DNA from: a virus | Direction: 5' to 3' (one strand) | UHGV virus genome: UHGV-0134996 | Length of the DNA: 64,000 bases | Shown here: positions 39,352-40,329 of the stretch, piece by piece | Layout of the letters: each line of letters opens with the position of its first letter | Position numbering within the stretch: position 1 is the stretch's first letter | Position numbers and translations under genes: made by a program | Notes under the pieces: model-generated | Told to the model about the DNA's origin: nothing | Seen by the model: only the letters and a program-made list of their open reading frames with translations | Databases searched by the model: none

Positions 39352-40161
39352 ATGCAAGAAGAGAAACAACACTACCTCTACGTTCTGGTGCCAGAGAACG
39401 GAGATACTTTTAAAATCGGCATTTCATGTGGTCCATTGGCACGGTTTAAAGGACTACAAGTGAGTCCCGATTTTGCGCTTTCACGGGTCTATCGTGGTAC
39501 GCGTTTGGCAATGGTTAATCTTGAGCGGGCTTTACACGCAACCTTTTTCCCCTGGAATGCGCCGTGGGAGAAAAGCGTCGGTGGCGGGCATACTGAATGG
39601 TTTACACGAGAGTGTCTTGATAAGGTTTTGGCTCATATCGAATATCTAAATGATATGTGGGGAGGGATTCTCGAGCGCATTAAGTCGAATGATTTACTTC
39701 AGCGTCCAGTAGATGCTGCTTGCTCTTTCGAAAAAGAGCTGGATGTTACTTCTATCGTGACTTTCAAAGATGACGCAGGAATGAGGGACGTGGCTTATGT
39801 CTCCATATCTGGCTATGAACCGGACGCGATCCGCGCTCAATGTGAATTGCTGAAAGCAATGTTTATGCTTCGGACTAAATATCCCTGGGATACAGGGCGG
39901 GTGTGCTTCCCTATGGAAGAGTTAACCGCCACCATTGATTCCCAGCTTTACCACGATAATCCAGAGAAGTTTTTTAGCCTTTTAGCCGGTAATGGGCTTA
40001 ACTGTGTGTCCGGGCTGGGGCGAAGTAGAATCCAACATGCCTCGCTCTTCGGTCCCTTCTTTTACGATCGACACGGGTACTTTGAGGCTGAACTTCCGGC
40101 GCTTACGCGTGCTATAGATACTATCGATTTCGAACGATTATTCGCTGCTCTTAGCAAATAA
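39352..40161 (+). CDS. T5orf172 / GIY-YIG-like domain protein
   Basis: 269 aa; YLYVLVPENGDTFKIGIS and HTEWF motifs; own terminator. Confidence 0.5.
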   Translation: MQEEKQHYLYVLVPENGDTFKIGISCGPLARFKGLQVSPDFALSRVYRGTRLAMVNLERALHATFFPWNAPWEKSVGGGHTEWFTRECLDKVLAHIEYLNDMWGGILERIKSNDLLQRPVDAACSFEKELDVTSIVTFKDDAGMRDVAYVSISGYEPDAIRAQCELLKAMFMLRTKYPWDTGRVCFPMEELTATIDSQLYHDNPEKFFSLLAGNGLNCVSGLGRSRIQHASLFGPFFYDRHGYFEAELPALTRAIDTIDFERLFAALSK

Positions 40162-40168
40162 CACTGAT

Positions 40169-40190
40169 GCCCCTGAACGGGGCTTTTTTG
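40169..40190 (+). terminator. Intrinsic terminator
   Basis: gcccc-tgaac-ggggc followed by TTTTTT. Confidence 0.7.
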
Positions 40191-40329
40191 TGCCCTCCTT
40201 GTAACTCTCAATCGTGCAAAATGAACCAAACATGCAGAGAATGCTATGTACAAGCATCTACGCATACATTATTATTTTATGCAGCATTTTTAATTAAATT
40301 CAAAAATACAGCATAAAGGATGACTTTCG

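Follow-up and report, generated by a model that had tools for sequence, protein, structure and literature searches.

A T5orf172 (GIY-YIG-type) nuclease-like gene at the right edge of the p0111 replicon cassette of P1-like phage-plasmids, a candidate homing-endonuclease-like passenger

Gene content of the replicon region

The replicon region of a 64,000-nucleotide stretch of viral DNA (UHGV virus genome UHGV-0134996; the whole stretch is called the window here) was analyzed computationally, with the focus on one gene, which we call the T5orf172 gene after the domain that its product carries. A reading made from the sequence alone had placed this gene of 269 amino acids (aa) at 39352, between the repA iterons and the par operon, and this arrangement was confirmed: the iteron array lies at 39060-39321 and parA begins at 40330, beyond both the gene and its terminator, and the last control iteron ends 30 bp ahead of the ATG. 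The features of the region are as follows.

37978..40227, + strand: swapped 'p0111'-type replicon cassette, 2250 bp; homology to P1 (NC_005856) is broken between its ends
37993..38098, + strand: five direct origin iterons, core TTGACTATACGCGA, 21-22 bp spacing, defined by repeat families and strict core matches
38175..39059, + strand: repA, Rep3-type initiator, 294 aa, with the start codon annotated in RCS47
39060..39321, no strand assigned: control (incA-like) iteron array, two direct copies and then at least four inverted ones
39352..40161, + strand: T5orf172 gene, a 269-aa open reading frame (ORF); 39352 is the first start codon past an in-frame stop
39352..39666, + strand: N-terminal nuclease-like domain of the T5orf172 gene, aa 1-105
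39667..40161, + strand: C-terminal domain of the T5orf172 gene (aa 106-269, predicted winged-helix-like fold) and stop codon
40169..40192, + strand: intrinsic-terminator-like hairpin and T-run closing the cassette, GCCCC-TGAAC-GGGGC (5-nt loop), then TTTTTT
40228..40329, + strand: Ppar promoter/operator region, the right-hand homology arm, common to P1, where Ppar and the ParA operator are annotated

The T5orf172 gene and its product

The ORF is a real gene and not a chance ORF, because PHROG 2876 (annotated as function unknown) spans its full length with E = 1e-194, conserved copies occur in hundreds of records, and positional homologues are found in three other lineages. The Pfam family T5orf172 (PF10544, gathering cut-off 20 bits) matched aa 8-85 with 26.9 bits (E = 6.9e-6), and the three other lineages also scored above the cut-off, with 25.1-27.8 bits. 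The T5orf172/GIY-YIG-like domain proposed by the sequence-only reading was therefore borne out by the profile search, and the two motifs quoted for it, YLYVLVPENGDTFKIGIS and HTEWF, were located at aa 8-25 and aa 80-84, respectively. That reading had also said that it would fall if profiles gave no nuclease-domain match; PF10544 gives one. MUG113 and Tox-URI2, which belong to the same clan as T5orf172, gave sub-threshold Pfam matches, and PHROG 681 'endonuclease' matched the ORF as well (7e-9). The NCBIfam profile search with the ORF protein gave no match, the family of the C-terminal domain gave none in Pfam or in the PDB sequence search, and Rfam over 37800-40400 gave none at E <= 1. The GC content was 47.3% for the T5orf172 gene, 45.5% for each of repA and parA, and 48.0% for the window; a foreign base composition of the gene was rejected since 47.3% is not anomalous.

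The residues Y10, K21-I22-G23, R31, and E82 (in TEWF) were invariant among seven homologues with identity down to 23%, and the region aligned with the YxYVL...G...R motif of 1ywl. By analogy, R31 and E82 may be the catalytic Arg and Glu of a GIY-YIG-type nuclease. We conclude that the product is a T5orf172 (GIY-YIG-type) nuclease-like protein, for which nuclease activity is predicted. AlphaFold2 (AF2) was run with a two-sequence alignment, which was unusable (predicted local distance difference test score, pLDDT, 53), and with a four-lineage alignment (mean pLDDT 71.8). In the latter model the N-terminal domain resembles SLX1-type GIY-YIG nucleases and takes a GIY-YIG-type fold, and the C-terminal domain of about 165 aa (aa 106-269) showed a weak WH1-like structural resemblance that was not significant (Foldseek E = 0.18).

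Exchange of the replicon cassette as a unit

The homology between the window and P1 runs up to window position 37977, which is P1 locus position 3506 inside oriR. This breakpoint lies past the DnaA box and five GATC sites and 16 bp ahead of the first incC iteron. Homology is back at 40228, which is P1 locus position 4998, 19 bp before the Ppar -35 element, and from there onward the identity was 99.5%. The 2250-bp cassette thus stands for 1491 bp of P1 made up of the incC iterons, repA, incA, and approximately 170 bp, and the T5orf172 gene ends 66 bp inside its right-hand boundary. The gene had been read as an insertion between incA and par; it is instead the right-hand part of a cassette that was swapped as a unit.

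The repA gene in the cassette matched Pfam Rep3_C (5e-6), Rep3_N (2.7e-4), and PHROG 775 (3e-134), and its product was 41% identical to P1 RepA and 84% identical to that of L003, one of the IMG/VR and homologue loci that are named here by their handles. The layout of the origin iterons is that of the P1 incC iterons, and the arrangement of the control iterons is common to the window, L003, L004, L006, and P1. The iteron cores differ, with TTGACTATACGCGA in the window and the 19-bp GATGTGTGCTGGAGGGA in P1, and all 10 strict core matches in the window fell within 37995-39316. Between 38000 and 42600, the window and the RCS47 / SJ46 / JL22 / phi456 group of P1-like phage-plasmids had 98.8-99.4% identity. 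This indicates that the replicon, which had been taken for P1-type, is the 'p0111' replicon of the RCS47/SJ46/JL22 subgroup and not IncY; the architecture is P1-like, with a different specificity cassette.

Pairwise comparison of the cassettes and their backbones gave the following protein identities.

Window and P1: RepA 41%, T5orf172 gene absent in P1; ParA, ParB, and gp23 100%
L003 and L004: RepA 40%, T5orf172 protein 29%; ParA 100%, ParB 98%, gp23 99%
Window and L003: RepA 84%, T5orf172 protein 44% (N-terminal domain 64%, C-terminal domain 32%); ParA 89%, ParB 66%, gp23 80%, gp22 82%
L004 and P1: RepA 83%, T5orf172 gene absent in P1; ParA 89%, ParB 67%, gp23 80%, gp22 82%

Two independent pairs, window and P1 on the one hand and L003 and L004 on the other, therefore have backbones that are 98-100% identical and carry different cassettes. 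In both pairs the left-hand breakpoint was just ahead of the first origin iteron and the right-hand breakpoint was 63-84 bp past the T5orf172 stop codon. The cassette as a whole moves between backbones; the gene was always part of a rep cassette and has diverged further than the genes around it. Presence and absence were also seen on closely similar replicons. L004 has an IncY-like RepA and the T5orf172 gene, where P1 has 213 unrelated bp; L078, with a RepA 90% identical to that of L004 and the same par type, is without the approximately 950 bp carrying the gene, and homology to L004 position 8925 begins within about 6 bp of its last incA iteron. L079 likewise is without the gene and has the same par junction; its RepA is 50% identical to that of P1, which suggests one more replicon type among P1-like elements. 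On the L003/L004-type backbone, four rep cassettes with or without the gene meet one common par junction, ...CCTCCCTGCCCTTTTGACGGCTTTTGATAAAC, which was seen in the IMG/VR loci L078 (4090-4510) and L079 (4050-4510).

Some further observations were made on the cassette. An iteron-like 14-mer, TTGACTATAAGCGA, lies within the repA coding sequence (38779-38792); it may bind RepA inside the gene or be a coincidental match. Between the direct and the inverted control iterons there is an inverted repeat (39103-39140, TTGACGCTGG...CTGGCGTCAA), which was not scored as a terminator and whose left half, TTGACGCTGGTGGATTTT, is kept in the L003 lineage. Among ten p0111 alleles, the nucleotide diversity (pi) of the origin iteron segment 37978-38174 was 0.065 with 16% segregating sites, and that of repA and the control iterons was 0.011 and 0.010, respectively; this excess suggests mosaicism at the left recombination boundary. 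The naming of repA is uneven: the same gene is 'IncHI1B' in MOB-suite/PLSDB typing, 'RepB family' in PGAP, 'RepFIB replication protein A' in RAST-style records, and 'replication helicase' in PHROG-based annotation.

Distribution and confinement of the family

In PLSDB, 401 plasmids carried the T5orf172 gene at identities of at least 95%, and 404 carried the whole cassette, so that the gene is linked to it in 401/404. Among 5426 complete E. coli genomes, 412 carried the T5orf172 gene and 361 the P1 IncY replicon, which is a near-even split of the P1-like elements. A survey of replicon and par types in 80 IMG/VR loci, gathered through ParA, gave the following distribution.

p0111 RepA: 40 loci, T5orf172 gene in all
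IncY RepA with P1-type par: 23 loci, T5orf172 gene absent
IncY RepA with P7-type par: 14 loci, T5orf172 gene absent
Others (L078, L079, L086): 3 loci, T5orf172 gene absent

The incA-Ppar spacer of P1 was compared by six-frame translation and tblastn, and no remnant of the T5orf172 gene was detected (best E = 2.0), so a decayed copy in this spacer was rejected. The sequence-only reading had asked whether the gene is universal in P1-like elements with a housekeeping role. It is near-universal in the p0111 type, as the 401/404 linkage indicates, but it is absent in all IncY P1/P7-type elements surveyed, and the common occurrence of disrupted alleles excludes a housekeeping role.

Two protein searches were made for the family. 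The word-indexed search of 5.8 billion proteins returned its own cluster (1241 members), fragments of this cluster, one homologue (P0004, 44% identity), and nothing else. Two further full-length relatives, P0009 from Salmonella (27%) and P0011 from a faecal metagenome (28%), came from the exhaustive HMMER search, which covered 1.84 billion representatives; the remaining matches in it, about 150, covered only the N-terminal domain (aa 1-105). The full-length protein thus occurs in only four diverged lineages, with 25-44% identity. P0004, P0009, and P0011 are all in P1-like contigs with the order upfC, upfB, ppfA, Rep3-type repA, iterons, T5orf172 gene, parA, parB, gp23, and gp22, and in all three the last inverted control iteron ends 20-35 bp ahead of the ATG. 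This shows that the whole family occupies one site only, from the control iterons to the par promoter.

The distant homologues of the N-terminal domain are different in context. L015 (6001-6876) and L016 (6001-6879) encode proteins of about 290 aa with unrelated C-terminal domains. P0013 is chromosomal and lies beside genes for Mrr_cat, WYL/WCX, and Hypoth_Ymh domains, and P0016 lies near relaxase, TrbM, and UmuDC genes on a contig resembling a plasmid or an integrative and conjugative element. A rep linkage of these distant homologues was rejected, and because P0013 and P0016 are not rep-linked, the association with rep is specific to the four P1-like lineages.

The gene itself has been recorded before. 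PGAP names the product 'GIY-YIG nuclease family protein', and the JL22 paper reported that an unknown protein-coding gene, together with repA' (p0111), replaces the IncY repA, and assigned no domain or function to this 'gp57' (PMC9603915, 2022). The JL22 'gp57' and its orthologues in RCS47 and SJ46 are the same gene as that of the window, with 97-100% identity. The annotation in hundreds of records, the companionship with p0111 repA, the domain family, and the pattern of homing endonucleases at exchange boundaries are therefore already known. The restriction of the family to a single locus in P1-like replicon cassettes of several RepA specificities, the clean presence/absence pair of L004 and L078, and the quantified relaxation of selection and decay given below appear to be new.

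Selection and decay of the T5orf172 gene

The ratio of nonsynonymous to synonymous polymorphism (pN/pS) was calculated from ten alleles, namely those of the window, RCS47, and eight plasmid records. The pN/pS of the T5orf172 gene was 0.43 (0.36 for the N-terminal domain and 0.49 for the C-terminal domain), and that of repA and parA was 0.02 and 0.00, respectively. The 33 intact IMG/VR copies encode 20 distinct proteins, and RepA is conserved at approximately 100%. Disrupted copies were found in 7 of the 40 IMG/VR loci and in at least 8 of 60 E. coli genomes, an even-step sample of the 412 carriers. The disrupted share is approximately 15-18%, about 82% of the copies being intact, and at least eight independent inactivating lesions could be distinguished. 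The lesions and the records that carry them are listed below.

Stop at Q36: L009
Stop at codon 68: L031
Stop at codon 112: O111-type plasmids and four IMG/VR loci
Stop at Q228: L013 and L080 (3523-4332)
2-bp deletion: L008
1-bp deletion: L023
IS1 insertion: L022
Internal replacement or insertion: L056
IS1-bounded remnant: L024

In the O111-type plasmids (L021, O111:H8 plasmid, 401-1210), the stop at codon 112 has led to the annotation of two ORFs. L080 is apparently the reference phage-plasmid SJ46, which would thus carry the Q228* allele. The plasmid records with broken alleles are of full size (82-104 kb), and this indicates that replication and maintenance do not depend on the gene. The T5orf172 gene is a dispensable, often inactivated passenger.

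Terminator and expression

The hairpin at 40169-40192 has a folding energy of -11.9 kcal/mol (z = -2.3 against shuffled sequences), and the homologue in L006 is likewise trailed by a hairpin and a T-run. It is plausibly an intrinsic terminator, though a short one. A terminator-like hairpin does follow the gene, as had been noticed from the sequence, but 'strong', the word used for it, is too much for such a short stem at this energy. It is the first good terminator downstream of PrepA, and the scan of the + strand found no terminator-like site in the interval between repA and the T5orf172 gene of the window.

The promoter scan of the interval from repA to the ATG gave no sigma-70-like site in the window, L004, or L006. 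The lone match on the + strand in this interval was a 9-of-12 site in L003 (7936-7963), approximately 160 bp before the ATG, and such sites were no more frequent there than in shuffled sequence. A sigma-70 promoter of the gene's own was therefore rejected. Because the interval is too tight for a promoter of its own and lacks a terminator, the T5orf172 gene is probably read together with repA or from inside the iteron array. Such transcription would tie the gene to RepA autoregulation, and the level of the protein in the plasmid state would be low.

A homing-endonuclease-like passenger of the replicon

T5orf172 homing endonucleases in phages have recognizable signatures (Barth, Dunham & Seed 2023, PMC10448857), namely variable presence, unstable reading frames, essential genes as neighbours, and placement where exchanged DNA segments begin or end. 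In this study, the gene is polymorphic for presence and absence at one locus (P1/IncY elements without it; L004 against L078), it degenerates under relaxed constraint (7/40 and at least 8/60 copies disrupted; pN/pS 0.43), and it lies beside essential genes at an exchange boundary, with its stop codon 63-84 bp before the breakpoint in two independent swaps. Because these features match the signatures, we believe it most likely that the gene is homing-endonuclease-like and free-standing, belongs to the T5orf172 branch of GIY-YIG nucleases, and rides as an optional passenger on the right edge of the replication cassette; we give this reading about an even chance (roughly 0.5). A homing-endonuclease-like selfish gene was among the functions named by the sequence-only reading, and variable presence, decay, and boundary position now favour it.

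On this model, the C-terminal domain would bind a specific DNA site, and the N-terminal domain would cut nearby in a co-resident or incoming P1-like genome without the gene or with another cassette. Recombinational repair from the gene-carrying element would then copy the gene together with the linked replicon cassette. Such copying would favour the gene's own inheritance and may help to explain why rep cassettes are swapped as units between near-identical backbones.

Several points weigh against the homing model. Cleavage, target site, and gene conversion are all proposals here, and DNA binding by the C-terminal domain is suggested by a medium-confidence model and weak structural matches. The gene was never seen moving alone but always with the rep cassette, and the divergence of its copies approximately parallels the RepA groups; this picture suggests long residence more than recent homing. 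The common cassette boundaries could simply be places where flanking homology permits recombination. Zn-finger DNA-binding domains of the CapR/DUF723/DUF4397 types are present in 87% of the phage T5orf172 homing-endonuclease genes (PMC10448857), but the C-terminal domain here is not such a Zn-finger. In addition, a pN/pS below 1 with 82% of copies intact is also compatible with a weakly useful function for the host or plasmid.

Alternative readings

The gene may instead be a defence or superinfection-exclusion 'moron' that is expressed during lysogeny and cuts or binds the DNA of unrelated phages or plasmids. Such a role would suit the position of the gene, which stands alone between functional modules and has a terminator of its own, its fast evolution, and the neighbourhood of the distant homologue P0013, whose Mrr_cat, WYL/WCX, and Hypoth_Ymh genes can be taken as defence-island-like. 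However, the defence function that had been suggested from the sequence found no support in profiles: the PADLOC-DB 2.0 defence models gave no family at E <= 1 with the ORF protein, so a known defence system was rejected. The limitation of the full-length family to a single locus of P1-like elements also speaks against it, and frequent inactivation and absence from half of the P1-like elements tell against strong selection. We consider a defence role unlikely.

Studies have shown that a T5orf172 nuclease can be directed against replicons. Odn (ICP1 Gp88) is directed to an origin, and its binding domain is 42% identical to the RepA_N domain of the rival (PMC8263062). By the same principle, a Rep-type winged-helix C-terminal domain could recognise the iterons or origin of rival P1-like elements, or their RepA, and the nuclease could destroy them, with the rep linkage serving as self-immunity. 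The hint for this is the Rep WH1-like structure of the C-terminal domain. In contrast, hhalign of this domain against the P1-like RepA family (five RepAs) gave a probability of 0.2, and no Rep protein was among the exhaustive HMMER matches; the structural scores were not significant (Foldseek E = 0.18), and winged-helix folds are common. Odn-style chimerism with the element's own RepA or that of P1 was therefore rejected at the level of sequence. We regard such a weapon as improbable, and no less doubtful is the more specific proposal that each rep cassette carries a 'replicon killer' whose WH1-like C-terminal domain was derived from Rep long ago and whose own iteron type confers immunity. If it were true, replicon killers would extend the Odn-like principle to contests between phage-plasmids and would drive the IncY/p0111 replicon dimorphism.

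A domesticated, non-cutting DNA-binding accessory of the replicon, acting on copy number, handcuffing, or the par promoter in the manner of the PLE repressor CapR, seems quite unlikely to us. CapR shows that T5orf172 proteins can act as repressors, and the gene lies directly 3' of the control iterons, probably on the repA transcript, with repA linkage in 401/404 plasmids. Nevertheless, nonsense, frameshift, and IS1-disrupted alleles occur in full-size plasmid records (82-104 kb), phage SJ46 included, and IncY replicons of the same design work without the gene. The window and L003 share their iterons and have RepAs that are 84% identical, yet their C-terminal domains are only 32% identical, which is unexpected for a reader of cognate iterons, and the catalytic Arg and Glu are retained. 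Least likely of all is a functionless relic in neutral decay: it would fit the pN/pS of 0.43 and the 15-18% of alleles broken by many independent lesions, but the pN/pS is below 1, about 82% of the copies are intact, and the frame and catalytic motifs are kept across four lineages with identity down to 25%.

P1-like phage-plasmids are common carriers of extended-spectrum beta-lactamase (ESBL) genes and mcr-1 in E. coli and Salmonella. A T5orf172 gene that biased the inheritance of its linked rep cassette, or that attacked rival ones, would be among the forces behind the IncY/p0111 dimorphism and replicon swapping. In that case, the view that exchange boundaries are marked by nuclease genes would also extend from lytic phages to plasmid replicons. 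If the gene is only a decaying selfish passenger, it would still serve as a marker for the p0111 cassette and call for caution against naming it a replication or defence gene.

Comparison with known systems

In the products of the T4 seg genes and in I-TevI, the GIY-YIG-type catalytic domain is N-terminal and the C-terminal region binds DNA. These free-standing GIY-YIG homing endonucleases are intergenic and optional, and the T4 cases co-convert flanking markers. The gene studied here is like them in having the GIY-YIG-type domain ahead of a candidate DNA-binding region and in being intergenic and optional, but it belongs to the T5orf172 subfamily and resides in a plasmid prophage.

The homing genes of the T5orf172 family in ICP1, T5-like, and other phages (PMC10448857) share more with it: the nuclease domain family, the free-standing position beside essential genes, the variable presence, the frequent stop and frameshift alleles, and the location at the edge of an exchanged segment. 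In contrast, the host here is a temperate phage-plasmid, and terminase, nrd, or capsid genes are replaced as neighbours by a plasmid replicon; the nuclease domain forms the N-terminal part, a Zn-finger of the CapR/DUF723/DUF4397 types is not what follows it, and each genome has a single copy.

SLX1 and HIGLE (PDB 6seh, 7cq2, 7wme), which the modelled N-terminal domain resembles, have only 11-19% sequence identity with it. These eukaryotic nucleases are structure-specific and have a RING/PHD partner domain, and a functional link to the T5orf172 gene is absent.

Odn is similar to the gene product in combining a T5orf172 domain with a second domain, in its association with an iteron replicon, and in the catalytic Glu (E180 in Odn, E82 here by alignment). 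The two differ in that similarity to Rep is not detectable by sequence here and the domain order is reversed, and the T5orf172 gene of the p0111 cassette adjoins its own replicon instead of lying in a predator of the replicon.

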